A stretch of 63,875 nt of DNA, the filler included, from Blastocystis sp. subtype 4 (lineage: Eukaryota): the NCBI RefSeq assembly GCF_000743755.1. It is 51 parts of 51 records of this genome, joined end to end, with 100 filler letters (N's around TTAATTAATTAA, not from the genome) between each part and the next. Parts side by side here need not be neighbours in the genome. Positions count along the whole stretch, not along the records: positions 56,659 to 57,689 come from NW_014568545.1; 50 more parts are not named here. One strand, 5' to 3'. The translations under genes and the position numbers were made by a program. Every line of letters begins with the position of its first letter. The stretch's first letter is position 1. Below, one piece after another: positions 1,801 to 60,229 of this stretch. The notes below the pieces were generated by a model that saw only the letters and a list, made by a program, of their open reading frames with translations, was not told the origin of the DNA and did no database searches.

Positions 1801-1831
1801 ATCAAATAAATAATGTTATAAGAAACAGACA

Positions 1832-2385
1832 TTACTTAATGTATGATACCAACTTATGTGATTGAAAGTGATTGACATGAATTGTGAGATATGAATAGAA
1901 TTGATATGGTATGAGAGTGTAAATATAAATGGAAATAAGAAATGAATGATATGAGTAATGAATGATGAAAATGATATTCCCGTGATTGTATTCAGTAATA
2001 TTGAATAGGAATGAAGAGATGATAGTAGAATAGTGAGATATGAATGAAAGTGAATGTGGATTGAAATGAATGAAATGGGCTAATGTGGAAGGGCGTAATT
2101 GGGGATCCGAATTGTGGTATTGCTGAAATGAGAGATTGCTGAATTGAATCGATTCCCGTGAATCAGTTTTAGGTAACAGTGAATGAAATACAGTTATATT
2201 CATATCGAATAGGATTAATGAGTGATAATAAGAGAATGAAAGTGGATAATGTTGAATCAATATCAAAGAAGATGAATGGAGTAGATTGGAGAATGAAGTG
2301 GAAAGAGTACTTGAAAGAGAGTGTATTGAATAGTAATAAGAATTGTATGTTGAATTTGAATGTTGATAAAGAAGAAATGAGAGGA
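1832..2385 (-). promoter_or_regulatory. Conserved upstream region of the variable surface protein family
   Basis: Near-identical non-coding block at 15309-15900 and 25426-26009, partial at 46410-46620; carries repeated CACGGGAAT. Confidence 0.5.
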
Positions 2386-2559
2386 NNNNNNNNNNNNNNN
2401 NNNNNNNNNNNNNNNNNNNNNNNNNNNNNTTAATTAATTAANNNNNNNNNNNNNNNNNNNNNNNNNNNNNNNNNNNNNNNNNNNNTCAACTCTCCACATG
2501 AAAGGATGACTAGATAGCATCATCAATGAGTTTCGATGAGATGATTGGTTTCTTCGATT

Positions 2560-2774
2560 CTTGATGGTTATGGAGGATAATCAACGATGATATGGATGAA
2601 GTGAGAGAAGTGTTAACAGAGTTGATGGTTATCATTTGTGAATGATGTGATTTGTAGCAGAGTTATGAACGATTAGAAGATGCCTTGTCTAGTTTGCTTG
2701 ATTTGAGTCTAGAACGAGGAAGCAAAGACAATATGAGTGTGTTGGTTGTACTCTTGAATCAACCTCCTTTGTAA
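2560..2774 (+). pseudogene. PP2C-family phosphatase C-terminal remnant
   Basis: LSSLLDLSLERGSKDNMSVLVVLL is the PP2C RGSxDNxS motif; upstream part is disrupted. Confidence 0.55.
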
Positions 2775-3125
2775 GAAATCGAATTCAAGATGAGAACTAG
2801 GATTGATTCTGTGAAAGTGGAAGCACAATAAGAAAAGGATCGACTGAAGAGAGAGGAAGAGGAACAAAGCGAAGAGAATTGAAGAAGAACAGAGAATGGA
2901 TAATGATAAGGAGATTTCTCTTGTTTGTTGAAGATCATTTGAATCTGAGAATCAGGTTACAACTCATGACTTCGAACAAAGAGACTATCTGAATCAACTA
3001 GACATAAGAACTTCGGCTTCGAATAAATGATTCAAGAGCAACAGCATCTACATCTTATCTCCAAATGTTAATCAGACTCGTTGCATTCAATTCATAAACA
3101 CTAGCAAATTGATAATCACCACTGC

Positions 3126-3663
3126 TAGATATCAACTAAAGTGAGAACTGGAATATCTACTCTCAACTCAATTCATTACTCATACTCTCCAAAACAACAG
3201 ATCCAATATACCTGAAACAATTGGAAGGAATATGCATTGAAATAAGATGACTCAGATCTAATCATCATTCTTGCTTTTATTCATCACTCTTCATTGTTAG
3301 AGTGTTTCGATAATTGAAAGGAGCTGTGTTATTCGATTTACGATCATCTCCTCCATCTCCCTGAAATGCTCCTTCTAACAGATACATGGATTCAAATCTT
3401 GGTAGATCTGACTATTACTCCTTCATTCAATCATTACTCTCAAATTGAACTGAATGACAATATCTGAATGAATAACTAGCAAAAGACACTGATTCAAGTG
3501 AAAGTAGATCTGATTATTACTCATTCATTCAATCATTACTCTCAAATCGAACTGAATCACAATGACCAAATGAATAGCTTCCAATAGATATGGATTCAAG
3601 TGAAGGCAAGTCTTTCAATCATTTCTCACACTCATTCTCACCAATCAAATCAACATCATAAGC
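3126..3663 (-). pseudogene. LRR protein fragment, one repeat per exon
   Basis: Spliced reading LPSLESISIGSYSF..VRFE/NLLSLESVSF../NLPRFESMYL..YRNTLTMK/NLSHL..; ~30-nt phase-1 introns; early stop. Confidence 0.6.
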
Positions 3664-3763
3664 NNNNNNNNNNNNNNNNNNNNNNNNNNNNNNNNNNNNN
3701 NNNNNNNTTAATTAATTAANNNNNNNNNNNNNNNNNNNNNNNNNNNNNNNNNNNNNNNNNNNN

Positions 3764-4877
3764 TCAAATCATGAAGAGATCATTCAATTCAATGGATTCT
3801 TATCTCTATTGGCTGGAATGAGTTCAACCAACAATTGCTTCGTTTATCCTTATAATGTTACTACCTTTTCCAATAACTTCTCTAATCCTAGTGATGCTGT
3901 TAATAGGAGTACAGTTTGGGCAAGCAGTTGGAATCTTTGTAGTTCAACCATATTTGATTTCTCTGGTTCTTCTATTCCACTCATCAATTCTTATCGACTG
4001 TTCTCTTGGGATGTTTCATCAGCTCCCTCTTCATTCTCTATTGAAGGATCTGTATCAACTGATGACTCTTGGAACATGATTCTCTCTCCATTCAATGTTG
4101 GCTATACCGCATATGAATGGAAACAGTTTGATCTTGTTTCTCTTCCTCACAGATATCCTCTTCTTCGATTCACTCCTCATTCATCTTATGGTGGTAATAG
4201 ATTTGAACTGAATGAACTACAATTCCTTGTTTGTAATCGTCCTTCTGTGAGTAGTATTGAGTATCCTGAAACAGAATACTCATTCTACAAGGATTATCAG
4301 ATCTCTATTAGTCCGATTCAATATGGATACAGTGATTGTTCGATTCAGCCTTCACTTCCTGATGGAATGAGTATTGATTCCAACACTTGTATCATCTCTG
4401 GTGTATCTCATTCTCTCGGTTCACAACAGTATACTGTCACATCAACAATGATCACTCCTCCTATTCAATCTATTCTCAATCTCACATTCATTCAATGCTC
4501 TGGAAGTGTCTACAGAATTGACATGGTTTTTGACAGTCTTAGGAATGATCAATTCACTATTCGTGATACATCTGATGAAAGTATCCTCTATCAGATTCAA
4601 GCAGATCCTGGGGAATCAATTAAAATGAAGACTCATTATCTGTGTATCACTGTTGATCGATTTGATGTCACCTTCATATGCCGTGGAATGTATTCTGATT
4701 CGTATTATTCCATGTATTTGATACTTCCTGATGGTGAACAGGAAATGGTTCTGAAAGGACGATATGATGCTTATCAGTATAATGTTCATCATCATTATGT
4801 TCGTCGTCCTTCTATCAATCATTCAGAACAATGGTATTATAAGATGGGTGAAGTGCCTACCAATTGGTTTGGTGATG
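3764..4877 (+). CDS. Variable surface protein family, hypervariable central module (F5/8-discoidin-like + He_PIG-type Ig + beta-sandwich), partial, copy 1
   Basis: Open across the contig; Ig motif SIQPSLPDGMSIDSNTCIISG..YTVT; constant ends LAGMxSTNNCFVYPY and RRPSINHSEQWYYKMG shared by 9 contigs. Confidence 0.75.
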
Positions 4878-5036
4878 NNNNNNNNNNNNNNNNNNNNNNN
4901 NNNNNNNNNNNNNNNNNNNNNTTAATTAATTAANNNNNNNNNNNNNNNNNNNNNNNNNNNNNNNNNNNNNNNNNNNNTCCTATATGGGATATAACAAGAA
5001 ACAGACTACTAATAAAAAAACCATTACACAACTCTC

Positions 5037-6048
5037 TTAAGGACGATACTCTCCAGTCACAACAGCATGATCACGTTCATAAGGTTCCAATGTCAATTGT
5101 TCCAGTGGCTTGAACTTCTCCTCCCTCATCTTCTGTACCTCTGCAGCAAACACAGCTTCAGCAGAAGCAGTCGAATCAATACAGGAAGCCTTAATTGAAA
5201 TAACACAGTGACCTCCATTCTTCAGGAAATACTTGGCATTGATTCCCACAATACGAGCTTGATCAGGCTGAGCCACATCCGCAAAGATGGTATCAACCAT
5301 TCCTACCAACATACGATACTTCAAGGGATGACGAGCATCTTCAATGATTGGTACAATGTTTGGACGTGTCTTTGCCACATTTATCAGATCTCGACCCGGT
5401 CGGTGAGCAAACTCCACAGCATACACGAGACCAGTCTATCCTTCACTTCCACTCAATTCCATCTACAGGTCCAACAAGATCAGACACATGAGATACAGTA
5501 GTTCCCGAAGCAGCTCCCAGATACAACACTTTGCTTCCTGGACCCATGAAAATATCGCCAATACCTCCCTATTCCATCACTCTAATCTTTATCACCTACG
5601 ACAATTGCAGCGCCTAACTTGGAACGGAAAGGATTCCATTGTCGATATTCCTTCTTCTCTCCGATCGTTCCCTACATCTCATCGACCTATCCAAGGGCTA
5701 ACCGGGACATCTACAGAGATCTTCTTCTCTCCATACACAGTCTTTCCAGGAGCGAAGTTCAGTGTGCACAAGACATCTTCCTTAGAAGAGTGAGCGATGT
5801 AAACTCCACGGAATCTAACCGTTAACGCTCCAAACACAGAATCTACTTGTGAGACTCTATTGTCACTTTCGTTCCTCCTTTCATTCCTCCACGACCTCCA
5901 CGATTACCTCCTCTCGCTCCTCCTCTGCCACCACGTCCACCTCCTCTGCCACCACGATCTCCTCCTTTTCCTCCACGTCCACCTCCTCGGGCACCTCCAC
6001 GTCCACCTCGACTTCCTCCAAACCCGCCTCTTCCTCGAGATCCGTCAT
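5037..6048 (-). CDS. FBL: Fibrillarin (rRNA 2'-O-methyltransferase), first exon missing
   Basis: RGG/GAR N-terminus; [51 protein letters not shown]; short introns. Confidence 0.97.
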
Positions 6049-7403: not shown

Positions 7404-8514
7404 CACTTGACACATCACTCTGTATCACCTTCCAATCTGTGTATTCAATCTGGAAAGGGAAATACGTTGAGAACACACTTGATACATAGATCGGTTTGTA
7501 ATCCTGTCTATTCATTGTCATCATATCCAACTCCATCTCTCCATAATCAACAGTCAAAGTGTAACCAGTTCCAACTGACCAACCATCTCCATATGAATTG
7601 GCTCCTTGGAATGTGTATATTCCATTATTCAAACAGAAATCAACATAGTAATAAGCATTATATACAGGGAATGAAGACACTGACTGAAGAACAGTTCCTG
7701 AGGTTCCTCTTCCTTCATAATGAGTTATATTGAGGAGAATAATCAGTTCTGATACGAACAGTCATCAATCCCTTGCCTCCAGTACAATTCACTACAGTGA
7801 ATAATAAGATGCCAGTCACATTTCCTCCAGTCATCTTAGTAGCAGTGATGGTGTAGGTTGTAACAACACTTACAACTGTAGGAGTACCTGAAATCCAACC
7901 AGAAAAAGGATCCAACACAATGCCAGCAGGAAGAGAAGGATTGATTCTGAAGTTCATGTAACGATCTCCATTCTGAGGAATCACTTCAGACATCTCAACA
8001 TATTTGAATACAGTGACTGGATCATAGGTGAAGTTAGGAATATCAGCCAACACATTATCAGCAAACAGATCCAGAGAAGAATCACCAGTACCAAAGTTCT
8101 CAAACTTGAATTGATTGTAAGGAGTATTGTTAGGGAAATAGATTCTTCTCTTCTGACCAGCAGTAGAATAAGTGAGACCAGTTACATTGGTCAGAAGTGT
8201 CCATTCATCTGTATCTGAGTTACGACCATACAGTCATCACTGTATGATGATGATACGGAATAATGGTTCTGAATCTGAACAGAACTGATCCATTCACGAC
8301 GATTGTTTGATAGAGTCAAAGTCAGAGAATTGGCAGCACAGGATGAAGAGTAGAGGATAGATCCATAAAACATATCGAAAGGGCTATCTGCAGTTCCAGC
8401 TATACCTGTCATTGAAGCAGTGAATTCCCAGATATGAGATTCAGATTGTTCTGATGACATCAAACGAACCATTGTATCGAAATAGGATGTGAGTTGAGTA
8501 TCATCAATAGCAAC
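7404..8514 (-). pseudogene. Variable surface protein, second discoidin-like + Ig module, with deletions and frameshifts
   Basis: SEQSESHIWEFTASM..REWISSVQIQN..LPAGIVLDPFSGWISGTP..; split over three ORFs; paralogs at 29679 and 37895. Confidence 0.65.
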
Positions 8515-9816: not shown

Positions 9817-10653
9817 GCTGCTTGTACACGAGTCTTGATTACATCCATTGGAGTCACTATCACTCATTCAATCATCATATTCCCACTCAAGAAGGCTGAA
9901 GTCATTCCAGCTCCACATCCAGCTAACAGAAGTCCTGAAAGAGAACATGATCCATTAAAAGGAGTAAACAGATCCACAAGAGCATGGTTTAAAGGGAAGA
10001 AGATCATGAAGTATGGAATATCACGCATCAAAGTGATTGAACTTCCCTTGTACATTCCTTTCAAACCCAATTCACGAATCACTACAATCAACAACACACT
10101 CTCATCTCATACCTCCTCCAATATTCTTTCGTTCAGCAACAGGAAGAGAAGATTGAATTTGAAGACGAATCTTTGTGATCTCCATTGGATTCGAAGCAAT
10201 CACTTGAACACAACCAGCTCCTGCTCCTGCAAGCATACCTCTGAACAAAGAAACATGACCATTCTCATCAGCTAACCAGTCACGGAACAGATCATTGCTT
10301 GCAAGCTTCAAAGCTTGAACAGGAAAGATACCAATCAAATTAGCACCCATTCCACTGAATAATGAGATGATAAACACAATGATACCGATACAAACCAGAA
10401 ACACCTTCTTTTGAAACGATGCCTTTAAAGGCTTGAATTGGATTCTTGTANACTCTCACTTGCATGGTGGTCTTAATCATATCCAAAGGATACACAATCG
10501 ATGTTGCCAACACTCCTGATGTTCCACCAACAAGAAGCTTCTGCGAAAACGTCACCTAAAATCAAGAATAAAGTCGAAGAATACCTTGCGTTCACTATTC
10601 AGTGACTGTACAGAGTTCAATTGCAAGTCTTTATCATACTTCTCCGATAACAT
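9817..10653 (-). CDS. Mitochondrial carrier family (SLC25; glutamate/aspartate-carrier-like), 3' truncated
   Basis: Carrier signatures YPLDMIKTTMQ, NPMEITKIRLQ and TPMDVIKTRVQ; RDIPYFMIFFP; short introns; ATG at 10653. Confidence 0.9.
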
Positions 10654-11814
10654 TAGGAATAACTAACAAAGAATGAACAGCCAGTGGTATATGATAGAAC
10701 CGCGGTTATCTTTCTAATTTACCCATATTCTTCATAGACCCCCACTCCGAACTTGTACGGCCATCAGTTTTGATATCCATGCCAATTTTTGATGATTGTA
10801 TGAGACCTATATTCATGAGAATAATATTCACAGGAGAATGAGAAGATCAAACGATTGTGAAGTCAAACTGAAGGCAAGAATAAAAATGCAGACGACAATA
10901 AAAAACAAAAATAATGATAACTGGGATACGCCATATCTTTCTGCTAATGATGTTGGAAAATCATTGCAGTTGAAAAGGATAGTATAAACAAACAATAGAT
11001 TCCTCTCTGCTACTTCGATAAATGGGTAGAACAAGTGGAATTCCAGTAAGACATCTAACAATCACTTCTAACCATCAATATCAACGCATGAAGATAATAG
11101 TATACATATCTACCCATTAGAACAATCTGGATGAATTGAGATAGTAGAATTGATCTTCCTGCTAAAACACTTCCTAGTGCATTTGTATTTGAATTCAATT
11201 CTCTCCAGCAACTACACCAGAACAAAAGAGCAAGAAGTCGAGAAACAGCTAACGAGAAGACAAAGTGAGAAGTAAAAGACTCAATCTCACCCTTCTACAA
11301 CTCATCTATAATCAGAAATACAACTCGAGAACGAGAGAATAAAAGGAGTTGAGGATAGATTGCAAAAGCTTCTACATAGTGTGAGAAACTCCACAGAATA
11401 TCCAGAATAGGTTGTTGTGACAAACCAGGATGAACCAACTATACTAAATAGAGAAAGAAATAACTACAAGGGCATAACCAAAGAGAAGTACTAGAAAGAA
11501 AGAGATTGATTTGAAGGCAGTTGAAGGATTATGACCTGCAAAAGGATCCTTCAAATCAAATAAAACTTGTAGTAACTACGATATATGAATAATAAGNNNN
11601 NNNNNNNNNNNNNNNNNNNNNNNNNNNNNNNNNNNNNNNNTTAATTAATTAANNNNNNNNNNNNNNNNNNNNNNNNNNNNNNNNNNNNNNNNNNNNCCTT
11701 CTGATAAGAAGAATGATGATTTTGATGAATTGAATTAGTGTATATTGTTGTTTGATGTTTCTTTTGATCACTTGAATGACATCATGTAACTCTTCTCATA
11801 ATAACAAACACATA

Positions 11815-12658
11815 ACAAATGCTTTTCAATAGCATTCTTCATTTCACGGATATACTGTTTTATATCCGAAGCGCCAAAGATTGCTGAGCCGGATACTAAC
11901 ACGTTAGCTCCTTTGCTCGCACACAATTCTGCATTCTTTACAGACACACCACCATCAACCTCAATGTAAATTGACGAAGACAACGCCCTTATCTGAGCCA
12001 CCTTATCCAAGCACGATTCCATGAACTTCTGACCTCCAAATCCAGGCTCTACAGTCATTACCAACACCATATCCCTAGAATGAAAGTGTGATATCATACC
12101 TACAGAAGGGGAATAAACTCCTTTATGGCATCAACAGATGTCTTTGGCTTAATTGTCATAGCACACAACATTCCAGCTTCATGGACTTGACGGATAATAT
12201 CTCTTGGGTCTTCTAATGGTTATAAGATCTAACAAAACAAACTCGCTGCCTCCACATGGAAATTGAACATATTAGCTCCTGCTTCCTTTAAAGGAATAAT
12301 ATACTTCTCAGGGTTCTCAACCATCAAATGACAGTCCATGAAGTCGCTATAAATTACACAAACAATCAACTTCCACGATAAATGCTTGCGTAGTGACTTC
12401 ACTACAGGAGCTCCAATAGTAAGATTCGGAACAAAATGACCGTCCTACAGGTAATTCGGAGATAGGGGAAACACACCATAATATCAACGTGGAGCCAGTC
12501 AGCACCATTCTAATGATAATAAGGCCACTAAACTACAACAGCTATGAGCATTCGACAATCTCGTTCAAGATTGGAAAAATCAGCGCTAAGAATACTCGGA
12601 GAAATAATACTAAGGATAAAAATCCAAATGGAGAGTGATACGGCTTTAAAGAATCCAT
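11815..12658 (-). CDS. RPE: Ribulose-phosphate 3-epimerase; stop predicted to be completed by polyadenylation
   Basis: Spliced [69 protein letters not shown] at 11815 lies 4 nt before TGTTTGTT. Confidence 0.95.
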
Positions 12659-18950: not shown

Positions 18951-19934
18951 GTGTTACAAATGATCCAGTAGAAGAAACAGAGAATAAAGGAAGAGCATAC
19001 AAATCATTGAATGGTGTAGGAGGATTTCGAACTCAAGCAGTTAGTTGTGATAAGTTGCGTGCTGTTAGAACAAAGAGATTGGCATTGTAGCATGATATTG
19101 TTTTGTTGTTGTTTGACTTTGTGTGTTCGTTTAGTCATTTGAACATGCCAGGAGTTCGTATGAGTGATTTGCGTTCGGTTCAGTTTGATGTGTGTGATGG
19201 TGATGATGAAGTAGTATCAATCGCTTCAGACATCTATACCAACATCCGTTTGAGTGTGAACGGAAGGTTTAAGTTAAACAGCATTAACTGGAAGGTTTAA
19301 GGTGCTATGCAGTTGCTCCGCAACTCGCTGATAAGTTGATGTTAGATTCTTTTCATTTTGAATCGATTAATCAATTCACCGTATTCACTTTGTATATGTA
19401 AGGAACAAACAAGTGAATACGGTGAATTCACCAATGATTGATGGATTTCTCAAAGATCGACAACCAAACCACTATAAAGGGTGTCGATATTATGGTCTGG
19501 GTGTCGATAATTGTTGAATAAACGATCTAAAAGAATGGTTGGTGAATAGTTTTATGGGGATTTTAGTGTTTTCTGGGTGTCGATGATGAGGCTAGCGTGT
19601 CGATAATTATGAAAATGATCTTAGAAAAGTGAAAAGAATTGGAGTATTCACCAATTCACTTCATTTCTCAAAAGTCTTTAAAGATCGACACCCAAACCCA
19701 TTTATCGATACCCAGATAACAATCATGGTATTATTGAGACATTACTTACAAACCATCTCCCGTATTTCTATTCAGTTATCTGAACATCAAAAATAGACCA
19801 TATTTTTGCACAGATTTAGCGGTTGTTCGTCACCCTGTTTACTTAACCATTTTTGCACATATTTATTGCGTCAGCTCAAGGAGGTGTGGCACTTGCGCCT
19901 CGCCCTCCGCAGAGCACGCATGGACTCAGGGCTC
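18951..19934 (+). mobile_element. Terminal segment of an unclassified element: ORF end, small ORF (MPGVRMSDLRS..), iteron-like repeats and GC-hairpin terminus
   Basis: Small ORF also at 29480-29578 (-); 19838-19934 matches 55343-55441 and 57790-57888 with unrelated flanks beyond ...CAGGSCTC. Confidence 0.55.
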
Positions 19935-29678: not shown

Positions 29679-30756
29679 GATCGGTTTTGTTCCACTACTC
29701 ATTTCCATGATATCCAATTCCATCTCTCCAACATCAACAGTTAGAGTATATCCAGATCCTGCACTCCATCCATCTCCCCATGAATCAGCTCCTTCAAATG
29801 TGTATATTCCATTATCCAAACAGAAATCAACATAGTAATAAGCACTTGCTACAGGAAATGGAGATACTGACTGAAGAACAGTTCCTGAAGTTCCTCTTCC
29901 TTCATACAGTTTCCATGAATTCTCACTCTTATAATAATCAGCATAGAAACGAACAGTCATCAATCCTCGAGTACCAGAACATATAGTCACTTCAAATGAG
30001 ATAGTAACAGTCACATCTCCTCCACTAATCTTAGTAGCAGTGATGGTATAGATTTGAGCACTACTCTCATCAGTGGCAGTACCTGAAATCCAACCAGTAT
30101 AAGGATCCAACACAATACCATCAGGAAGAGAAGGATTAATTCTGAAGTTCATGTAACCATCATTATTCTGAGGAATCACTTCAGCCATTTCAATATACCT
30201 GTACACAGTGACTGAAGAATCATAAGTGAAGTTAGGAATATCAGCCATCACATTATCAGCAAACAGATCCAGAGATTGAACATACCAAGTACAAGAAGAA
30301 GAATCACCAGTACCAAAGTTCTCAAACTTGAATTGATTATAAGGAGTATTGTTAGAGAAGTAGATTCTTCTCTTCTGACCAGAGTGTCCATTCATCTGTT
30401 CCCAAGTTACGACCATACAAATTGAATTGAGCAGCCTTATTATTGCTGTATGTTGTTGTATAGTAGTTCTGAATCTGAACAGAACTGATCCATTCACGAC
30501 GATTGTTTGATAGAGTCAAAGTCAGAGCATTCTCAGTACAGGAATAGTAATAGATATTGGTTCCATAATACATATCAAATGGATAAGTGGCAGTTCCATA
30601 CATACCAGATAATGAAGCAGTGAATTCCCAGATATGAGATTCAGATTGTTCTGATGCCATCAAACGAACAACTGCATCGAAATAGGATGTGGTGTAACTG
30701 TCAGCAATAGCAACAATAGCAATAGCAATCGTGTTACTTCCAGATTGAAGGAATGT
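29679..30756 (-). pseudogene. Variable surface protein second module, frameshifted by a deletion near 30383
   Basis: Homolog of 7404-8514; LPDGIVLDPYTGWISGT Ig motif. Confidence 0.65.
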
Positions 30757-33203: not shown

Positions 33204-33263
33204 ATGACTTAGCTTCCTAGATCAGACGGGTTAGGGCGCTTTCCACTAGATATGACCGTTCTT
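33204..33263 (-). rRNA. 5S rRNA, 5' half (cut by contig end)
   Basis: Identical to 46660-46719; about 40 nt of upstream flank is also conserved. Confidence 0.8.
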
Positions 33264-33599
33264 GTTTTTATTTCTTTCACTAACCCTTTTCAACAACACA
33301 TTTTTATCCTCACATCATCAATGATAATAGCATTCATAAGAAACAATCATTCTTTTATATGAATGTTATTTCCTGATTTAGTCTCGTTATCAGTCTTCAA
33401 TCCATGGAGTATGAAACATAGTCGATTGCTTCATTCCGAATGTGAAAAAGAGTAGTAATAAGAGAATCCTTCTAGAGACAATCCCCTATATGCTATGGGG
33501 ATGAGGTGATGTGTATCCTTAGGAGTACAATAATGTTGAAAAATAATGAAGATAATTGATTAAAGAGTGGACTTTCATAAAGGATAGAATATTGATTGC

Positions 33600-34274
33600 A
33601 GGCATACATCTCCATGCCTGCAAATATGCCATATGATTGATGTAACAACCAAGTCATCTGAGCCAGACTCAATGCCCTCCCATCGTTATCTGTGAACAGT
33701 CAGAGTCACAGGAACAGGAATTTGCGACTTTGTTAGAGAAATCCAGTCTAATTCACAACACTCAAGATTGTCACTAACTTCTGTTTATCATCAGGATGGG
33801 AAAGAAGAAACAGTAGGATAACCTAGAATGTTGAGTGAGTTCCATTTGCTTCCAACAAGATTCTCAACATTCCATTCGATGAATGATCCAACTCTGTTAG
33901 GCAGCTTACCTGTAGTGTAAGGATCAAGATCCATGATTCCGGCAAGAGTACCTGAAGTGGGATTTGTAGATTCAAGTGAAGAATAGGAATCAACAATAGT
34001 AGAACAGTCTTCAACTCCAAATACTCCAGTAGCATCAAACACAACACCATCAGAAGAAGAACCACTCAAACCACGATGAATCTCAAAACTGAATACATTA
34101 ATGCCTTCTTGAATTCCAGATGTTGACAGAATCACATGGAACTTCGAGAAGGAAGTAGAATCATGATCAGTCATCGATAGACTCAAAGAATCGAAATCAT
34201 CTTCAAGATTGAATCGAGCAACCAGATTTCCATTCAGATAAGCAGCCACTCCTCCAGAATACTTCACTCGAACA
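33600..34274 (-). pseudogene. Variable surface protein third module, degenerate
   Basis: KYSGGVAAYLNG..VFDATGVFGVEDCSTIVDSYSSL homologous to 55542-56558; stops and frameshifts in the 3' part. Confidence 0.6.
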
Positions 34275-37894: not shown

Positions 37895-39182
37895 CATTCC
37901 TTCAATCTGGAAGTAACACGATTGCTATTGCTATTGTTGCTATTGCTGACAGTTACACCACATCCTATTTCGATGCAGTTGTTCGTTTGATGTGATCAGA
38001 ACAATCTGAATCTCATATCTGGGAATACACTTCAAGTATGTCTGGAATCAGTGGTTATTCCATATATCCTTTTGATATGTATTATGATACTCGTGTTTCT
38101 TCATCCAGTTGTGAATCTAAGAATCTTATAGTTACATTTTCTAATGATCGTGGTGAATGGATCAGTTCTGTAGAGATTCAAAGCTCTTATTATTCTGGCA
38201 GCTATCAATATGTGGTTACTGAATTCGTTCTGTATGGTCGTAACTCAGATACAGATGAATGGACACTTCTAACAAATGTAACTGGTCTCACTTATTCAAC
38301 AATGGTTCACAGAAGACGAATCTACTTCCCTAAGAATACTCCTTACAATCAATTCAAGTTTGAGAAGTTCAGTTCAGGGAATCGTTCGTCATGTTCATGG
38401 GTGATTCAATCTGTGGATCTGTTTGCTGATAATGTGTTGGTTGATATTCCTAACTTCACTTATGATTCTTCAATGACTATATTCAAGGATATGAAGATGA
38501 CCGAAGTGGCTCATGGGTGATTTGTTTGCTGATAATGTGTTGGTTGATATCCCTAACTTCACTTATGATTCTTCAATGACTATATTCAAGGATATGAAGA
38601 TGACCGAAGTGGCTCCTCAGAACACAGAGGAGTATCTCGATTTCCGAATCTCTCCTGTACTTCCTTCTGGTATTGTGTTAGATGCTAACACTGGTTGGAT
38701 TTCAGGTACTCCTACAGTTGTGAGTACTACTCAAACCTACACAATCACTGGTACTAAGATGAGTGGAGGAGATGTGAGTGCCACCTTAACACNAATACTC
38801 CTTACAATCAATTGAAGTTTGAGAAGTTCAGTTCAGGGAATCGTTCGTCATGTTCATGGGTGATTCAATCTGTGGATTTGTTTGCTGATAATGTGTTGGT
38901 TGATATTCCTAACTTCACTTATGATTCTTCAATCAGTGTATACAAGGATATGAAGATGACCGAAGTGGCTCCTCAGAACACAGAGGAGTATCTCGATTTC
39001 CGAATCTCTCCTGTACTTCCTGCTGGTATTGTGTTAGATGCTAACACTGGTTGGATTTCAGGTACTCCTACAGTTGTGAGTGGTACTCAAACCTACACAA
39101 TCACTGGTACTAAGATGAGTGGAGGAGATGTGAGTGCCACCTTAACACTTACTGTAGTGACTTGCTCTGGAGATAAAGGAAT
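37895..39182 (+). pseudogene. Variable surface protein second module with a premature stop and internal duplications
   Basis: TGA at 37993 where a paralog has TCA; DLFADNVLVDIPNFTYD occurs three times. Confidence 0.65.
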
Positions 39183-40420: not shown

Positions 40421-42141
40421 GTTATCTTGATACTTGGTCGATCTCTCCTGCTCTGCCTAATAATCTGGTGTTTGATACTACTACTGGTGTCATTAGTGGT
40501 CGTCTTCAGAATGAAATGAGTGGGGTCCAATTCACTGTGACTGCTTCTAGTAGTTATGGAAGTATTACTGAAACAATTACTATTTCTTCTGTGATTGTGA
40601 ATTGTGAAGCAACTGATGTTTATCCTGCTACAAATCATGGAGACTATGCTATTACTAGTTGTCCTCAGTATTACATTGGTTATGGAATGAGTCAGTGCTT
40701 GGGAGGTGTATTTGAGGAACTTGATTTGACACATTGTGCTGTACGTGAAGCCACTATCTTCACTTATGCCATGTCTTCTCTGTCTGTAAAGACAGGTGTG
40801 GCGATAGAGCCCATGACATTGATGGTGGATTCTTTGTTCACTGGTTTCACAATCTCTCCAGATCTGCCTAATGGTCTGATGTTCTCAGAGGATGGTTCGA
40901 TCTCTGGAACTGCTACTGAACCTTCTACTGTCACTGTGTACACGATTAGTGGTATTAGTGCTGGTGGTAATAAGGAAACAACGTTGAGCATTGAAGTGAT
41001 TGATTACAGTTGTGCTGCTCTGGATTCTTTCTCTGCTGCTGCTAATGGAGCCACATCCTCTTCTACTACAGAGTGTCCTGCATATATGCATGGTACTGCT
41101 ACTCGTCTGTGTACAAATGGTGTGTTTGGACCTATCAATACCTCGAACTGTGTGTATGATGATATCACAGGATTCCACTATACTCCTAGTACCATTAGTG
41201 TGACTTCAGGTGAGGGTATTGTATCTTCAGATCCTGAGTATACTGGTTATGCCAGTTCGTTTATGGCTGTGGGTTCTTTGCCTTCTGGTTTGACTCTGAC
41301 TTCGACTGGTGTTATTGTGGGTGTTCTAAAGGAGACTGGTTCTTTCACCATCACAGTGAGAGCTAGCAATGAGAATTCTCAAGTCACAACCAATCTGGTC
41401 ATCACTGTATCTGCTGTTTCGTGTACTGGTGTGAATGGTATCACTGTTGCCAATGGAGATAGATTGATGGTACAGTGTCCTACAGATATGGAGGGAGAGG
41501 CTTTCCGAACTTGTACAAATGGTGTATTGAGTAGTGTGGATGTGAGTGGTTGTACTTACATGGTACCTAGCAATTTGACTTATGCAACTACTGTCTTTGT
41601 GATGACTACTGAGCATTCTTATGTGATTCCTCGTCCTGGTGTTGAGCATGTTGTGTCTGAATTCTCTGTGGAACCTGAACTTCCTAGTGGTTTGGTTCTT
41701 GAGACTAATGGACGTATTCAAGGTACTCCTACTACTGCTACTGCTACTGCCGATTATGTGGTGACTGCTAGTAATGAGAAAGGAAGTTGTACAGCCACTT
41801 TAACGATTACAGTTGAGTTGCCCAAGTGTGATGCCATGAAAGATTTCCCTGCTACAACAGTTGGTGAGAGTTACACTCTGGATTGTACAACGATTGAAGG
41901 TTATAAGGGAACGAGTACACGTACTTGTGTTGAGGCTGGAATTGGTCTGGCAAAGTGGGATAAACCTTCTTTCTGTATTGAGAGCAAGATGGATTTGTCC
42001 TTCGTGATCGGGATCATTCTGATTATTGTTGGTATGATCATAGTAGTACTGACAGTAATCTCAGTAAGCAAGACAAACAATGTGTCGCCACATCCTGTTT
42101 ATGTGTATGATCTAGTGTATCATATGGAAATACCAATGTAG
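40421..42141 (+). CDS. Surface protein C-terminal stalk: alternating He_PIG-type Ig and Cys-rich repeats, then a transmembrane helix (type I membrane protein), partial
   Basis: LPxGLxxxxxGxIxGTP Ig repeats, CPxxxxGxxxRxCxNG repeats, TM FVIGIILIIVGMIIVVLTVISV. Confidence 0.8.
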
Positions 42142-42506
42142 TTATAGTTGATACACCTTCTTATGAACTAACGTCTATTAGGTGATTTCTGTTCAGAATA
42201 CTAATAGTAATAACAAACATAACAAAGGACAAAACCATACCACGAAACTCTAATACACCCTTTGACTCTATCATTATACCTCTTCCTGATTAGGATTCAA
42301 TAAACTCTCTTGTTCTTGTTCCTGTTCCTGATCAACATTCCACTGATCATATAGATTCTTTATTTGTGTTCTATTAGTTAGTACTCCATATCATACCCAC
42401 ATAAGTNNNNNNNNNNNNNNNNNNNNNNNNNNNNNNNNNNNNNNNNNNNNTTAATTAATTAANNNNNNNNNNNNNNNNNNNNNNNNNNNNNNNNNNNNNN
42501 NNNNNN

Positions 42507-43551
42507 AATCTATCTCCATTGGCAACAGTGATACCATTCACACCAGTACACGAAACAGCAGATACAGTGATGACCAGATTGGTTGTGACTTGAGAATTCT
42601 CATTGATAGCTCTCACTGTGATGGTGAAAGAACCAGTCTCCTTTAGAACACCCACAATAACACCAGTTGAAGTCAGAGTCAAACCAGAAGGCAAAGAACC
42701 CACAGCCATAAACGAACTGGCATAACCAGTATACTCAGGATCTGAAGATACAATACCCTCACCTGAAGTCACACTAATGGTACTAGGAGTATAGTGGAAT
42801 CCTGTGATATCATCATACACACAGTTCGAGGTATTGATAGGTCCAAACACACCATTCGTACACAGACGAGTAGCAGTACCATGCATATATGTAGGACACT
42901 CTGTAGTAGAAGAGGATGTAGCTCCATTAGCAGCAGCAGGGAAAGAATCCAGAGCAGCACAACTGTAATCAATCACTTCAATGCTCAACGTTGTTTCCTT
43001 ATTACCACCAGCACTAATACCACTAATCGTGTACACAGTGACAGTAGAAGGTTCAGTAGCAGTTCCAGAGATCGAACCATCCTCTGAGAACATCAGACCA
43101 TTAGGCAGATCTGGAGAGATTGTGAAACCAGTGAACAAAGAATCCACCATCAATGTCATTGGCTCTATCGTCACACCTATCTTTACAGACAGAGAAGACA
43201 TGGCATAAGTGAAGATAGTGGCTTCACGTACAACACAATGTGTCAGATCAAGTTCCTCAAACACACCTCCCAAGCACTGACTCATTCCATAACTAATGTA
43301 ATACTGAGGACAACTAGTAATAGCATACTCTCCATGATTTGTAGCAGGATAAACATCAGTTGCTTCACAATTCACAATCACAGAAGAAATGATAATCGCT
43401 GCACTCATACTTCCATAACTACTAGAAGCAGTCACAGTGAATTTGACTTCATTCATTTCATTCTGAAGACGACCACTAATGACACCAGTAGTAGTATCAA
43501 ACACCAGATTATTAGGCAGAGCAGGAGAGATCGACCAAGTATCAAGATAAC
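42507..43551 (-). CDS. Near-identical paralog or allele of the 40421 stalk, partial
   Basis: Same start point and only scattered substitutions relative to 40421-41465. Confidence 0.8.
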
Positions 43552-46659: not shown

Positions 46660-46778
46660 AAGAACGGTCATATCTAGTGGAAAGCGCCCTAACCCGTCTG
46701 ATCTAGGAAGCTAAGTCATTACGAGTTGAGTTAGTACCAGTGTGGGGGACCCGCTGAGAAGTCTCAATGCTGTTCTTT
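46660..46778 (+). rRNA. 5S rRNA gene
   Basis: About 119 nt; helix I AAGAACGGT/GCTGTTCTT; conserved CCCGTCTGATCT, GAAGCTAAG and GTTAGTAC..TGGGGGACC motifs; T-run terminator. Confidence 0.88.
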
Positions 46779-49887: not shown

Positions 49888-49987
49888 NNNNNNNNNNNNN
49901 NNNNNNNNNNNNNNNNNNNNNNNNNNNNNNNTTAATTAATTAANNNNNNNNNNNNNNNNNNNNNNNNNNNNNNNNNNNNNNNNNNNN

Positions 49988-50902
49988 TTGATGCCATTTC
50001 CCTTAGGAAGAGAGACCATGGGTTCAGCTCCCTCACCAATCACGAACACATTGGAGAGACGAGTGGCGAACTCATGTCCAGCAGCATCTCTCACATGGAC
50101 AATATCGAAGGAACCGAAGTGGCGATCACGACGAACAATCACACCCACACGTCCAGTGTTGTGTCCCTTTGTGATGAAACACAGATTACCAGCTTCGAAC
50201 TTCACATGACCCACAATCTTGTTCGTTCGCAGATCAACCTTCACCGTATCGTTCACCTTCACCATAGGATCAGGATAACGAATAGTGCGAGCATCATGAG
50301 TCACAATGAAAGGAATCTTCTTAGACGACAGTTGACGCTTCACAACCTTGCACAGCTTGAACTACACATTATCACTCTCAATCATACACACTCCAGCCTC
50401 CTTCTCGTCAATGCGGTGGAGAACGAAACGACCCTTCACATCATACAACAGACGGAAGCGATCGCTAGAACCTTCCAGAGTCACAACATCTACAGTCTCA
50501 ACAACACTACACACACCTTACCCATGAAACCAGCAGGGAAAGTAGAGTCAGTACGCACCTTTCCGTCCACCTTCACAAGACGCTGCATGCAAATCATCTT
50601 CACCTCGTGATTTGTCAGAGCATACTTCAGACGGTTACGGATGATCAGAAGAAGAGGAAGACACTCTCTCATCTTATGAGGACCACAACTGGGATGAGGA
50701 GCCCACACACCTCCCATCTTGTTAAGCATCCAGTGCTTAGGGGCATTCAAACGCTTCAAATGCTTCTTAGGGCCGCGAGTCTACAGAGATATTACAAATG
50801 AAGTTCAAGAGTCTAGGAAACCCAACTTCCTTGAAAGCAATCACAATCACATTCATGGATTTGGGACAAACGTATCAGGAGTAGAAGACACAAACATACC
50901 AT
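49988..50902 (-). CDS. RPS4: 40S ribosomal protein S4 (eS4), 3' truncated
   Basis: [58 protein letters not shown] alone before a 119-nt intron. Confidence 0.97.
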
Positions 50903-54240: not shown

Positions 54241-55074
54241 TAGTAGTAGTGTTTTGACGCATGTTACGTATTTTTATTATCCAGACAAACCGTCGCAAAC
54301 ATGGGCCTCCAACCCTGGGTAGCTATACACGCTTAACCNNNNNNNNNNNNNNNNNNNNNNNNNNNNNNNNNNNNNNNNNNNNTTAATTAATTAANNNNNN
54401 NNNNNNNNNNNNNNNNNNNNNNNNNNNNNNNNNNNNNNACCTCCCCCATTTTCACTAAATTCCCCTTAACGAATCTATAACTAATTTTTACCAAACCAGC
54501 CTACCCTACTCAATCCAACCTACATTAAGCAACCACTCTCCCCTCTACTAACATTAATCAACTAGTATCTTTACCCCTTAATCCCCTTTATACATCAACA
54601 ACGTATATTTGAAGTCTGTTTGATTGTTTCTTCTGATCACATATTAGTAGTAGCAACTGCACACTTGGCCTCTGGCCTTTGTAGGAACTATCTTCTCATC
54701 ATTCTGGTATTCATCATCTATTCTCATTCACACAATGTCTGTTTGAGAACGGTGTCTCATCCACATACTCGGTCATCATTAGGACCTAACTTATGAATGT
54801 GAAATGCTACCATTCTCACCCAAACTTCGTGTTGTCAGGGTATATCGTTCATTTCATGAGAAGTCACCCTACTATTCTTTAACAGGAATAGTGTTTGGAT
54901 TCATGAACTCTCAACCAATCACTCGAGACTGGGACCACTCGGGAACTAGTCCAAGGCCTTAATGGTATGAACGTTAAGTGCCCTCTACGGCATCTAAGTA
55001 GTGTTTATCAACAACCCTAACAATCCATGTATTCATTATCAACAATCATTTCAGCATTCCCCTTAATTCACAGT

Positions 55075-55342
55075 TAACCACTATTCTGTCGAATGAACCG
55101 ATCAAGACAATCAGCATCTCAATCATTATCAATCAATCAATCATACTTGAACTATCCAACTCATCCACATTCTCGAATGCACAACTATCCATCTGAATTT
55201 CATCTAGAGTAAGTGATGGAATGTCTAATTCAAATTCAATCATCAATCATTACTATCCAATTCCACTTTCCTTATTTGGATGAAATTGTAATCATCTCCT
55301 TTAAATGAAGATAGAGAAGGAAGATCTCATCAATCAATTATC
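55075..55342 (-). pseudogene. LRR family B 3' exons, interrupted by an element end inside an intron
   Basis: Matches 47722-47985 and 31090-31350; the intron 3' half GATAATTGATTGATGAG abuts the element end. Confidence 0.6.
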
Positions 55343-55441
55343 GAGGCCTGAGGCCGTGCGTGCTCTGCGGAGGGCGCGGCGCAAGCGCCGCACCTCCTTG
55401 AGCTGACGCTCAAAAAGGAGTGCAAAATGGTTAAGTAAATA
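55343..55441 (-). mobile_element. Element terminus with long GC hairpin
   Basis: Matches 19838-19934 and 57790-57888; hairpin 55358-55409. Confidence 0.6.
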
Positions 55442-55541: not shown

Positions 55542-56558
55542 ACTCCAGTTGAAGCATCAACAGTGAGACCAGCAGGCAGAGATCCTGAGAACACAGACAC
55601 AACAGCTGTTCTCTGAAGTGTGGGAGTCAATGAGAAGGATAATCCCTCACCAATGATGAAGCTTGTTTGAGGGAAGAAGATATACTCTGGAATTACCTCA
55701 ATTGATATCTGGACTGAAGTACTTCCAGCTGCATTTCTAGCAGTTATGGAGTAAGTGACAGACAAAGAGGCTGTTGTTGGAATTCCAGAAATCTCTCCTG
55801 TAGTAGAGCTCAAAGACAATCCAGCTGGAAGAGACTGGGAACTGATCTCCCAGTTGGTAGCAATGTNTAATGGAATACCAGTAGATACAGTCTGACCAAT
55901 CACAAATACGAATCCTGTTGAGGAATAACGAACATTCTCAGGTGGCAATAGTACACAATGAGTAGTCACTTCAGGACCCAAAGATCCATTTCTACACTCA
56001 CGATATGAATAACCACGATATCCATATCCACAATTCTTCACAGACATCTCACCTTCATTCACAGAAGGATATGCTCCTTCTCCAGCACATATTGCTCCCA
56101 CAGGCTTACAATAAGCCATATGAATCGAAGCCAGCGACATGGAATCACTTCCAACCTTGGTAATCTCCCATCGATACTTTCTGAATGTTGACATTGAGAT
56201 AGACACAGGGATTTGAGGTTTTGTTCGAGAAGTGATTGTTGTGTTCTCCAAATCCAAAATCATGACTGGTTCCTCAGCAGTATTGTTAGGATGATAATAA
56301 CCATTGATAGTGAAACCCCAAGAGATATTAGTAAAACCAACCATGTTGAATGAGTTCCATTTGCTTCCAACCAGATTCTCAACAGTCCATTCAATATAGG
56401 TTCCAATCGTATTTGGAACAGTATCAGTAGTGTAAGGATTCAGATCCATGACTTTGGCCACGGCAGTGTGAGACAACCTATTTGACGATAGTGAAGAATA
56501 AGAATCAACAACAGTAGAACAGTCTTCAACTCCAAATACTCCAGTAGCATCAAACACA
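55542..56558 (-). CDS. Variable surface protein third module + Cys-rich repeat + Ig repeats, partial
   Basis: Open ORF; CAGEGAYPSVNEGE..CGYGYRG..RECRNG; LPAGLSLSSTTGEISGIP. Confidence 0.75.
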
Positions 56559-56658: not shown

Positions 56659-57689
56659 TCTCTATGAAGACTTCGGATACTCGAACAGACACAAACCAAT
56701 ACCAACACAAATCCAACATCACAACCTCAACTCATCCCACTTCATTCCTACCATTCATACTCACTACCATAATCTCAGTAGAATTCACTCCAGATCAATC
56801 ACACCTGAACATCTACTCAATCACAGACCACAAGCAACAGTACCATCAATCACAGAATACTCGATATAATCACCATCAAATTCAGGACTAATCGAGAAGA
56901 GACTCTTGATTCCTGTGTAATACACATCCACACAATAGTGAACTACTGTTCCGAGAATACCAGTTGTGAACGACAGAGGGAAGCTTTCATTACTCACTGC
57001 ATTCTCTGCTTTCATCACCACATTCTGATCTCTCATTCATTGAGAACGAGATCCAGAAATCATTCCATTCACTCAATCCAAACTCAAACCAGCACGCAAT
57101 TCACCTGATTCAATCGAATAGACACGAACATCTCCACTCATCAAAGGAGTATCTGAGAATGAATGGGATCGACGCAGAATGTAGGTTGATTGAGGATAGG
57201 AGAAGGCACAGAGAGGAAGGAGAACAGTGAATCTCAGAACAACCTTCTGACTGGCTCCATCACTCTGACCATTGACAGTCACACACTGCGAACAAACCCT
57301 TTCTGTTGGAGTTCCACAAATGACTCCAGTTCAACCATCAACAGTCACACCAGCAGGCAGAGATCCTGAGAACACAGACACAACAGCTCTTCTCTCAAGT
57401 GTGGGAGTCAATGAGAAGGATAATCCCTCACCAATGATCAAACTAGTTTGAGGGAAGAAGATATACTCTGGAATCACTTCGAGTGATACTTCACCTGAGG
57501 CAGATCCAACATCATTTTTAGCAGTTATAGAGTAAGTGACAGACAAAGAAGCCCTTGTGGGAATTCCACAAATCTCTCCTGTACTACAGCTCAAAGACAA
57601 TCCAGCTCGAACAGACTCCGAACTCATCTCCCACTTCCTACCAATGTTTCTGACTAATGGAATACCACTACATACAGTCTGACCAATCA
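56659..57689 (-). pseudogene. Ig-repeat stalk copy riddled with coding-strand C-to-G substitutions
   Basis: 57323-57689 aligns to 55542-55902; TCA-to-TGA stops and P-to-R, S-to-C, T-to-R, Q-to-E changes. Confidence 0.75.
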
Positions 57690-57789: not shown

Positions 57790-57888
57790 CATTTTCTTTT
57801 ACCATTAAGCATACAATTCTTGCGTCAGCACAAGGAGGTGCGGCGCTTGCGCCGCTGCCTCCGCTGTGCACGCTTGGCCTCAGGCCTC
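57790..57888 (+). mobile_element. Element terminus with long GC hairpin (variant)
   Basis: Same terminus as 55343-55441 with a compensatory GCAC/GTGC stem change. Confidence 0.6.
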
Positions 57889-60229
57889 TATGTGATATCT
57901 TCATGTTGTGGAAAGATGATTGTGGGAATGAGACATCTTGAATTCATTGCTTATAATGAGAGTGTAAGTATTGGAGTATCAATATGGTCTTTCATTCCTA
58001 TTCTTTACACATTGATCCAGTTTCAATAATTCTCAACCTTTGAAACAAGAATATGGCAGATTATGGACAAGAATAGGTAAATGATAGAAATCATGTAGTC
58101 CAGATAATCAAGGAAATGGATTCTTTATGGATAATATCAATACAGAGGTTATCCATGTTTGGGAAGAAGATGGTACCGAATAGCGCTTCTTTCTTCGTAA
58201 CGACATATTGTGTGGAAATAATGAACTCTATGATGTACTGTTAATGTGAGGATGCATATCGATAAACAGGATTCTTGATACTACATAGGTGAGATAGAAC
58301 TGAAATGCAAATGATGGGAATAGGAAAGGATGTAGATAACAGGATAATATCACAATCTAATCACAAACACTTTGTGGATAGTACTGATATGAAGATTTTG
58401 GATGTTGTTTCTGGGTTTTGTACTAATTGCCATTGAAGGAAATCAATTACTCTGGTTGATGAATTGTTATACACTTAGTACTCTGATACTATTACTATCA
58501 AACAAAAACATAGTATGTAAGAAAAATGGAATGCTTAGCTATACTTAAGAATCTGGTAAGTAATCTAGTCATTACAAAGAATTCACTACAATCAACCTTT
58601 CAACATGTTATCAAAACAATAGCACAATACATTCAATCATTCATATAACGATAGATCTCCTTATCAATTAGTGATTCATGAGATNAATCTTGATCAATGA
58701 AGTACCGAGTAACTCTGATCTTTCCTTCTGTTATTGTACAATCAATTCTTTAAACATATTCAACAACTGTTGGATCAACAAACGAAAAGTGAAATGCTGA
58801 ATGTTGAATTAGACGAACTATTATTATGATCTTAGTACAATAGATACAGGAAATAATACTATTATTGATAATGACATAAAGATAAGATCAATTCTCTCAA
58901 ATTGTGAGTAGTTCATGAGGAGGAGATTCAATTCCATCTTCAAATACAACAGGAAGCTTGTTTTGTTTTTGGTGATAGCATTATATCTTTCTTTCTTTCA
59001 ATCCTTGAGGAAAGCATATGATCTGATCATCATTCCTCTTCAATCTCGAACAACTGATGTTTCTTTTATTCTGTACCTCTGGATTATCATAACAAATAGA
59101 AATACGTATTCAATCGATGATGAACAATATGTTTGCAGTAAGAGAAAGGATAATGTCACTTCTCATCTTCTAACCAGTGAAATATCATTATCTTTCTTAT
59201 CAATAGCCCACAAATACTCATTATCCAATACTATCATTGTGAGTATAAAGAGTCTTTCAATCAATTGTACTCAAGGTGAAACATGCAAGGAATACACAGT
59301 TCTCACTCTATTAGCTATGTATCGAAGACTCTATGGAATCAATGTGGTTGTGTTCACCAATGATACCAATACTATTCAAGTATCAAAGGNNNNNNNNNNN
59401 NNNNNNNNNNNNNNNNNNNNNNNNNNNNNNNNNTTAATTAATTAANNNNNNNNNNNNNNNNNNNNNNNNNNNNNNNNNNNNNNNNNNNNTACAATAATCA
59501 ATAATTGAAAATGAGAATGAAGATTCAGATAAGGAACACACAAATACTCCATTCCACTTCCATAAGGGATTGTAGGATAATTCTTGTTGTTGATTGTTCG
59601 AAATGAGAAATGCTTTCCAAATCTATGATAACAATCCAATTCCACTTCACATTCATCACAAATTCGATACTCAAGAGAAACAAAACTCAAGTATTGTTTT
59701 AATCACTCTCAACTCCTATCGGTCCTACAGTCTTTAGAACTACTCATTCTTGTTTATTACTGATATGTGATTCTAGAAACCAGTTTGAAGAATGATTTTG
59801 ATTAGTAGTCTTGATACATCAAAAGGGAATAATGATACACAACTAGTCATTTGTACTAAACTGTCATAGTATCTTCCATTTGTCAAAAGAGTATTAACAT
59901 CCATGTGATTATTATACTACAACCAGGTAGATGTGAAGAGTAATTGAATTAGCATTCTCTGAAAACAGTAGTGATATACATCAAGTACTGTTGTTTAAAT
60001 CCAGTACCTTGATTGTATCATAACAGTAATCCCGAATCAAGAAAGAATGTTAAGAATCAAACGAGAATGAAATGCTGAAAGAATTGAAAAGAAGAAAGAG
60101 ATACTGATTTGAGAGTGTTAGATGAAGATGATTGAAGATTGATAAGAGTATTGATGATAGAAGTGAATATGATAACATATGAATGAAATAAAGATGATTT
60201 GAAAGAGAATGAGAATATGAAAGATGAAG

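Follow-up and report, generated by a model that had tools for sequence, protein, structure and literature searches.

Nearly pure, strand-coordinated C-to-G change in a He_PIG surface-protein pseudogene of Blastocystis with near-identical copies close to telomeres

Results

The window, that is, the whole 63,875-nt stretch of Blastocystis sp. subtype 4 DNA analysed here, consisted of 51 unrelated pieces of 1.0–2.0 kb, joined by spacers of the form N-TTAATTAATTAA-N, and was not contiguous DNA. Hence, the copy under study, which occupies the entire piece 56659–57689, and the paralog used for comparison, the preceding piece 55542–56558, are not genomic neighbours. The piece 56659–57689 (minus strand) was a fragment of a hypermutated He_PIG (putative Ig) surface-protein pseudogene from an ST4-like Blastocystis, matching residues 898–1241 of the protein P0002. 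A scan of metagenome contigs gave 37 loci (L numbers below), 26 of which aligned to this piece at at least 70% over at least 150 nt; these 26 represented 25 assembly prefixes, some of which may re-assemble one sample. Six stops had been created in the reference frame of the piece by C>G changes, and a 4-nt deletion near 56797 was common to L011, L029 and L037. The paralog (55542–56558, minus strand) was unmutated, with an open frame of 338 aa (P0001) assigned by Pfam to He_PIG, and its best relatives were proteins of Blastocystis BT1, which is subtype 4 (PMC12129017), at 87%, 79% and 74% identity. The full-length relatives had 1365–1580 aa and six He_PIG stretches, and the repeated domains and long membrane protein expected of He_PIG (PF05345) surface proteins were both found; P0003 carried a signal peptide and a C-terminal hydrophobic segment, as judged by eye. 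An adhesin role has been proposed for such He_PIG proteins in ST7 (PMC3129679).

Piece 37895–39182 (plus strand) held upstream sequence of a hypermutated copy of this kind and was 96–99% identical to L018/L014; relative to these loci about 355 nt of it were internally duplicated, either as a true tandem repeat or as an assembly effect. Telomere-associated sequence occupied 54439–54598 (minus strand) and was 96–98% identical to the DNA that separates the mutated locus from the telomere repeats (L016, L037, L033, L001 and L012). Nine N-terminal He_PIG paralog fragments, that at 3764–4877 (plus strand) and eight others at 6191, 8615, 12902, 16511, 17759, 20143, 23705 and 39283, served as controls; their best alignments were stop-free and their spectra near-symmetric. 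Variable fragments of this type (nine pieces across 3764–40320, plus those at 1261, 15309, 24891 and 45917) were 66–88% alike, with ends in common and many indels, and would represent a large, diversified family of surface proteins whose members assemble as separate pieces. The copies 40421–42406 and 42507–43551, 97.6% identical, belonged to a gene for a different Ig-like, cysteine-rich membrane protein. A 5S rRNA gene at 46660–46778 adjoined the 5' end of a He_PIG family member, and sequence related to this stretch was detected in piece 33204–34274 and in L031. A GC-rich element of ~100 nt with an apparent hairpin was found at 55340–55441, 19838–19934 and 57793–57891 (79–87% alike); these three had no match in Rfam at the gathering score, and the element is possibly an unannotated small RNA or an element end. 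Clear Pfam housekeeping fragments corresponded to fibrillarin (5037–5426), a mitochondrial carrier (10102–10404), ribulose-phosphate epimerase (11768–12097) and ribosomal S4 (49936–50343).

The alignment of 57323–57689 with 55543–55902 contained 45 substitutions, 23 of them G>C and one C>G on the plus strand (binomial p = 3e-6). A preliminary description of this DNA had put the G>C share at 22 of 27 after exclusion of a diverged block of ~90 nt; a share of 21/24 was obtained here without 57472–57557, the block edges being slightly different, and the stretch 57581–57689, described as holding G>C changes only, did so in 13 out of 13. The excluded block corresponded to different paralog backgrounds in the two window copies (57472–57557, minus strand; mixed substitution types, G>C in 2/21) and is likely a recombination patch from another paralog background, common to many contigs. 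The remainder of the piece, previously read as Ig repeats with P>R, S>C, T>R, S>stop and I>M changes, aligned to Blastocystis He_PIG proteins with 64–70% identity, and those changes were present. When the whole piece was compared with the intact locus L002, 126 substitutions were counted; on the coding strand 82 of the 247 C had become G, and the remaining counts were 9 C>T, 0 C>A, 1 G>C and 6 G>A. The densest tract lay at 56659–56858 (minus strand; 26/40 C read as G), which is the telomere-nearest end by homology to L016 and L014, and a second one, including the 13/13 stretch, at 57559–57689 (minus strand; 14/29).

On a close background, L018 against L013, the 387 C showed 89 C>G, 1 C>T and 2 C>A; non-C>G changes numbered 20 in 2624 sites, 9 changes fell on the 1580 A/T sites, and the C>G rate was ~86-fold above the mean of the other change types. 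Adjacent C sites had both changed 37 times, against 28 expected (p = 0.005). In L013 the Blastocystis locus was joined to bacterial-like DNA (1–2838) with two ORFs, one of 393 aa and one of 558 aa that resembled a kinase by eye. Strand-polarised spectra of other paralogs, part of a comparison that the preliminary description had proposed, were near-symmetric in the window and in the fetched sets. None of the other window paralog pairs came near this bias: the strongest was piece 37895–39182, with a weaker C>G excess (12:2 against piece 7404–8514 and 11:2 against piece 29679–30756), the 97.6% identical window pair had 2/25 changes at C/G, and among the distant paralogs L021/23/25/26 and L028/30/31/32 no pair exceeded 7 C>G and the changes were not asymmetric. 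Three more flagged window pairs (11:3 of 142, 8:2 of 174 and 7:1 of 107 changes) were dropped as cases of the same process, since C/G swaps made up less than 10% of their changes. A by-eye suspicion that piece 54439–55441 was also G>C-changed was discarded, the counts being 3:3 and 4:3 where paralogs exist.

About half of the mutated C had been described as TC, with no strict APOBEC motif, and this was borne out: 42 of the 82 changed C in the piece were TC, without enrichment (TC 42/126, non-TC 40/112; p = 0.79), and in L018 the values were 95/199 and 100/197. WRC was not enriched either (17/49 against 65/189 in the piece; 45/88 against 150/308 in L018), and no preference was observed among the 3' C of CC (37/75), TC (95/199) and the others (63/122). 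Enrichment of CC, CpG, TC and WRC was sought in the piece and in L018 and none was found, which ruled out methyl-CpG or TC/WRC targeting. In L018, C before A was mildly favoured (87/147 against 108/249; p = 0.003) and C after G was disfavoured (7/26 against 188/370; p = 0.024), these p values being uncorrected for multiple tests in a series of seven motifs and two sequences.

Synonymous, missense and stop-creating sites had been changed equally (9/26, 65/196 and 6/19), and in five near-full-length homologues the G-derived residues were found at 0, 2, 2, 2 and 2 of 91 positions. The equal rates among site classes and the clean intact proteins indicated neutral decay of the mutated copy, with no contribution from it to intact proteins. 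Selection for G-richness was ruled out by the frequencies of A>G (6/706) and T>G (1/874) against C>G (89/387), and hairpin-templated inversions were rejected because they also predict A/T swaps, none of which was seen.

Furthermore, the mutated copy was recovered from gut metagenome assemblies. L016 was 99.0% identical to the piece (6 substitutions and 4 gap columns in 1031 nt), and L017, L018, L033 and L037 were 98.3–98.8% identical. The 83 sites within the span of the piece constituted one shared G set, of which the 23 other mutated loci carried 11 to 82 sites, mostly in blocks, with 0–5 G outside the set, and the partly mutated loci had far fewer G/C switches than under independence. In 19 loci 94 switches were counted with two concordant sites on each side, 50 of them between sites less than 21 nt apart; they defined 36 breakpoints, some of which recurred in up to 7 loci. 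Such closely spaced and recurring breakpoints indicated that the switches were not plain graph-path chimeras. The intact L002, with 0 stops over P0003 residues 891–1572, had the same assembly prefix as the heavily mutated L018. The stop-free 118-aa part of the piece matched 22 protein clusters; the five inspected had 31–110 members, mostly stop-bounded fragments of 119 or 205 aa (ENA, JGI, Logan).

The C>G pattern thus is, at the level of assembled contigs, real and inherited. That base calling or assembly produced it is hardly credible, even if the window is built of short unplaced pieces and at least one fetched contig (L013) is chimeric: each of 82 G sites was also G in 5–21 other contigs of different assemblies, as differing block subsets; the spacing of the 50 out of 94 robust switches is under the path-switch limit for k of at least 21; and the neighbouring DNA on the same contigs and the other paralogs were unbiased. 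The artefact left open in the preliminary description is brought close to exclusion by this recurrence among assembled contigs, although artefacts may shape some of the mosaics. A read-quality artefact, guessed from the U-shaped G content of the piece, was rejected, as the same changes recur in metagenome contigs.

A single G set reshuffled in blocks points to few mutagenic episodes plus recombination and not to fresh mutation of each copy. Site-determined recurrence was discarded as the origin of the shared set, the context being too weak, and descent with recombination was preferred, with the caveat that one site was G on two backgrounds. More than one episode is likely, no single sign being decisive: outside the L016 set, 19 C>G were found against 9 C>T, 2 C>A and 7 G>C; the sparse downstream pattern of L001/L014 comprised 10/96 C, 9 of them in common with L018; and the downstream variant of the L012/L016 type differed from L005 by 19 C>G and 0 G>C.

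Near-identical copies of the mutated gene sit 2–3 kb from chromosome ends. Ten related loci reached a telomere-associated sequence of 500 nt and three reached telomere repeats: L014 (5300–5472), L005 (3985–4022) and L037 (at its end) finish in mixed TTAGGG/TTTAGGG on the coding strand, ~1.5 kb past the stop codon. It follows from this orientation of the repeats in homologous contigs that the telomeric G strand is the one mutated. As to the relation of the tracts to telomeres and transcription, which the preliminary description had suggested examining, gene and telomere were co-oriented in every contig. For the window piece the link is by homology, 56659–57689 itself being without telomere; in L016 the telomere-associated sequence starts 1.25 kb beyond the end of the piece. 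The S1 Text of PMC5608401 gives TTAGGG for ST1 and ST7, and no repeats in the then-available ST4 assembly.

C>G changes were sparsest towards the 5' side and most dense after the stop codon. In L018, placed on L014 columns, C read as G amounted to 10/61, 4/69, 6/57 and 19/54 over columns 400–1800, 6/48 to 21/43 mid-gene (columns 1500–3100) and 24/50 to 25/30 over columns 3100–4700; the lowest shares, 4/69–10/61, lie ~4–5 kb from the telomere repeats, and past the stop codon, through an ABC-transporter remnant, 97/133 C (73%) had changed to G. Six deletions of 3–15 nt, some between short repeats, were located in the densest tract (L018, L020), a seventh being set aside because it is also in L005; they are as lesion bypass by slippage would give. 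The ABC-transporter remnant followed mutated and intact copies alike (L003 2921–3457, L002 2188–2628), and in the telomeric copies it was cut where telomere-associated DNA begins, which suggests that a break may have been healed there. In L014, degenerate G-rich repeats at 4800–5300 made up the telomere-associated sequence, with 161 G to 16 C per 400 nt (4801–5200); such a sequence could be what prolonged C>G conversion finally leaves. The telomere-associated pattern gave 0 matches in each of the genome contig and viral contig collections, and no relatives of P0002 were found in the genome contig collection; the whole comparison samples one locus type.

Discussion

The reading that we favour, with a probability of about 55%, is that a chromosome end left its G strand exposed as ssDNA, that cytosines on this strand turned into abasic sites opposite which Rev1 placed C, and that recombination spread the resulting tracts. 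It builds on the spectrum, its strand, the telomere link in homologous contigs, the density rise, the lack of motif and selection, and the block mosaic, all of them observed directly. The telomeric G strand would have been exposed by end resection, break-induced replication (BIR) or a telomeric R-loop, and its cytosines lost through motif-free deamination and UNG or through a directly acting glycosylase; Rev1 would insert C opposite the abasic sites during fill-in, with extension by Pol zeta. After at least two such episodes, recombination among chromosome ends and paralogs would have broken the G haplotype up into blocks. It is the G strand that becomes exposed in resection, BIR, telomeric R-loops and lagging-strand synthesis alike. 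Exposure of this strand by resection and BIR has been described, as have deamination of ssDNA cytosine, its excision by UNG to an abasic site, insertion of C by Rev1 and extension by Pol zeta, the C>T:C>G ratio reflecting insertion by Pol delta or by Rev1 (PMC6765108, PMC11230362). In yeast, the C>G share, which depends on Rev1 insertion, climbs to roughly half where ssDNA is long and persists, at uncapped telomeres or during BIR (PMC6765108, PMC11230362). The Rev1 chemistry opposite abasic sites in ssDNA that the preliminary description had invoked is the best established fit to a polarised, clustered and motif-free C>G.

The repair list of Blastocystis (PMC5608401, S1 Text and S6 Data) includes Rev1, Pol zeta, Exo1, Mre11/Rad50 and TERT and is blank for apex1, ogg1, polB, polK, Rev7, XRCC1, LIG3, PARP and Ku; in the same source NHEJ is called absent and Rev7 is reported absent. 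REV1, polD1 and PCNA are ticked for the ST1 column only in S6 Data (PMC5608401), and since this holds for polD1 and PCNA too, the ST4 column of that table is taken as incomplete. UNG is listed for Blastocystis (PMC12134460). With APE1, Pol beta, XRCC1, LIG3, PARP, Pol kappa and Ku missing from the list, abasic sites would survive and Rev1 with Pol zeta would dominate, and we infer that the excess of C>G would result from inefficient repair of abasic sites combined with a scarcity of other bypass polymerases. Of the 68 window ORFs, 50 were searched, and none of these encoded a deaminase, a glycosylase or a Y-family polymerase.

Several observations count against this model. The C>G purity of at least 90% and the conversion of 73% of all C exceed what is seen in yeast and tumour clusters, where C>T is about equal to C>G; the profile within the piece is uneven and the gradient is not monotonic; L005, L014 and L001 reach the telomere side and are nearly unmutated in their last 700 nt; L003, L009 and L029 have G blocks followed by the ABC-transporter remnant and no telomere-associated DNA; and the window piece 54439–55441 shows no bias 630–900 nt inside its end. 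Polarity and gradient fit long ssDNA at chromosome ends and coincide with the direction of transcription, three contigs being without telomere DNA. The idea put forward earlier, of a mutator acting on the whole family as diversifier or RIP-like inactivator, was not supported: site classes were hit equally, intact proteins had 0–2 of the 91 G-derived residues, other paralogs were symmetric, and the changes were denser past the stop. What appears to be targeted is a position at the chromosome end and not the gene family.

The coding strand was mutated in all contigs, and G blocks occur in L003, L009, L029 and L027, contigs showing no telomere-associated DNA, as would be expected if R-loops exposed the non-template coding strand and an AID-like process diversified or eroded the surface family irrespective of telomeres. 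Nevertheless, Ig hypermutation peaks promoter-proximally, which is opposite to a 5' side that is sparsest and a region beyond the stop that is densest; given also that WRC motif and A:T changes are lacking and that intact genes and other paralogs are clean, we regard this origin as improbable. Even less credit can be given to damage of the other strand, by which guanines of the C-rich strand would be oxidised beyond 8-oxoG to G-pairing lesions and yield G>C. In its favour, S6 Data (PMC5608401) shows no ogg1 entry in any subtype, Blastocystis lives anaerobically, and from sequence alone either base of the pair could have been the damaged one. Against it, C>A, the equivalent of G>T, numbered 0–2 versus 80–111 C>G, and the 5' G of GG or GA was not preferred. 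Guanine oxidation normally yields G>T at equal or greater number, and at a resected chromosome end the C-rich strand is the one removed, not exposed.

Programmed C-to-G editing, in which a deaminase or cytosine glycosylase together with Rev1 inactivates chromosome-end repeats in a RIP-like manner and builds G-rich telomere-associated DNA, is unlikely as well, if less so than the two preceding explanations. A purity of at least 90% and saturation to 97/133 C are hard to reach via spontaneous damage, the telomere-associated DNA of L014 is nearly C-free on the mutated strand, and the signs of repeated episodes (the 19 sites outside the L016 set, the sparse L001/L014 pattern and the 19:0 variant) point the same way. 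However, the majority of duplicated copies show no such change, almost every G site falls within a single shared set, with new events rare, and the 50 window ORFs, a very small sample, held no candidate enzyme. Only slightly less doubtful is the more specific proposal of a natural, motif-free C-to-G editor of the chromosome-end G strand, whose deaminase or glycosylase would feed Rev1 where APE1, Pol beta and Ku are missing, killing genes within a few kb of the telomere and making G-rich telomere-associated DNA.

The preferred reading, Rev1 bypass of abasic sites on an exposed telomeric G strand, can be set beside several known systems. APOBEC kataegis and yeast ssDNA hypermutation share the strand-coordinated clusters at cytosine (82 C>G against 1 G>C here), the C>G change via abasic site and Rev1 that is proposed here, and the deletions and rearrangement alongside; in yeast uncapped-telomere and BIR hypermutation, which involves Ung1, Rev1 and Pol zeta, the mutated strand is the one left single at the end (PMC6765108, PMC11230362), as would hold in Blastocystis under this reading. 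The G-rich end strand recalls the GC skew of Encephalitozoon cuniculi chromosome ends, which is not traced to C>G changes in the account of PMC4704409. Blastocystis differs from kataegis and yeast in that TC/TCW is not followed, C>G makes up at least 90% instead of about half, up to 73% of C are changed, and the pattern is inherited and widespread in a natural population, with no known deaminase; the balance of C>T and C>G typical of kataegis is replaced by C>G:C>T ratios of 82:9 (piece against L002) and 89:1 (L018 against L013). AID somatic hypermutation also places Rev1-type C>G in a variable surface-protein gene, whereas here there is no WRC, no C>T or A:T phase, a gradient that climbs past the stop, and a dead gene. 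Fungal RIP resembles this case in the dense cytosine mutation of one type that fills a duplicated gene with stops, but the change here is a transversion, on one strand, without a CpA rule (a mild +1 A preference), most duplicates are spared, and instead of C>T on both strands C>T and G>A numbered 9 and 6 against 82 C>G. In the subtelomeric pseudogene mosaics of VSG and var, chromosome-end copies of surface families are block-shuffled as in an archive, and subtelomeric pseudogenes shuffled in blocks were found here too; the Blastocystis blocks differ in carrying one mutation type, with the G variants absent or nearly so (0–2/91) in intact proteins. Engineered C-to-G base editors, made of a deaminase and UNG, similarly reach high-purity C>G via an abasic intermediate, whereas the process in Blastocystis is natural, unguided and kilobases long.

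To our knowledge, clustered C>G has been seen in tumours, B cells and yeast with human deaminases, in each case accompanied by C>T and dependent on a motif. A full-text literature search, with most subscription journals outside its coverage, found no description of the pattern in Blastocystis or another natural population, and the main text of the long-read genome paper does not contain 'telomer', 'pseudogen' or 'mutation'. What is new here is a heritable, nearly pure, motif-free and near-saturating C>G in a very common human gut eukaryote. Comparisons of ST4 strains that include these repeats should be made with caution, as they would count hundreds of linked changes from few events. The locus provides a natural test of what sets the C>G:C>T ratio at abasic sites, may lead to a new cytosine-modifying enzyme of interest for base editing, and gives a specific way in which the G-rich skew of chromosome ends could arise.
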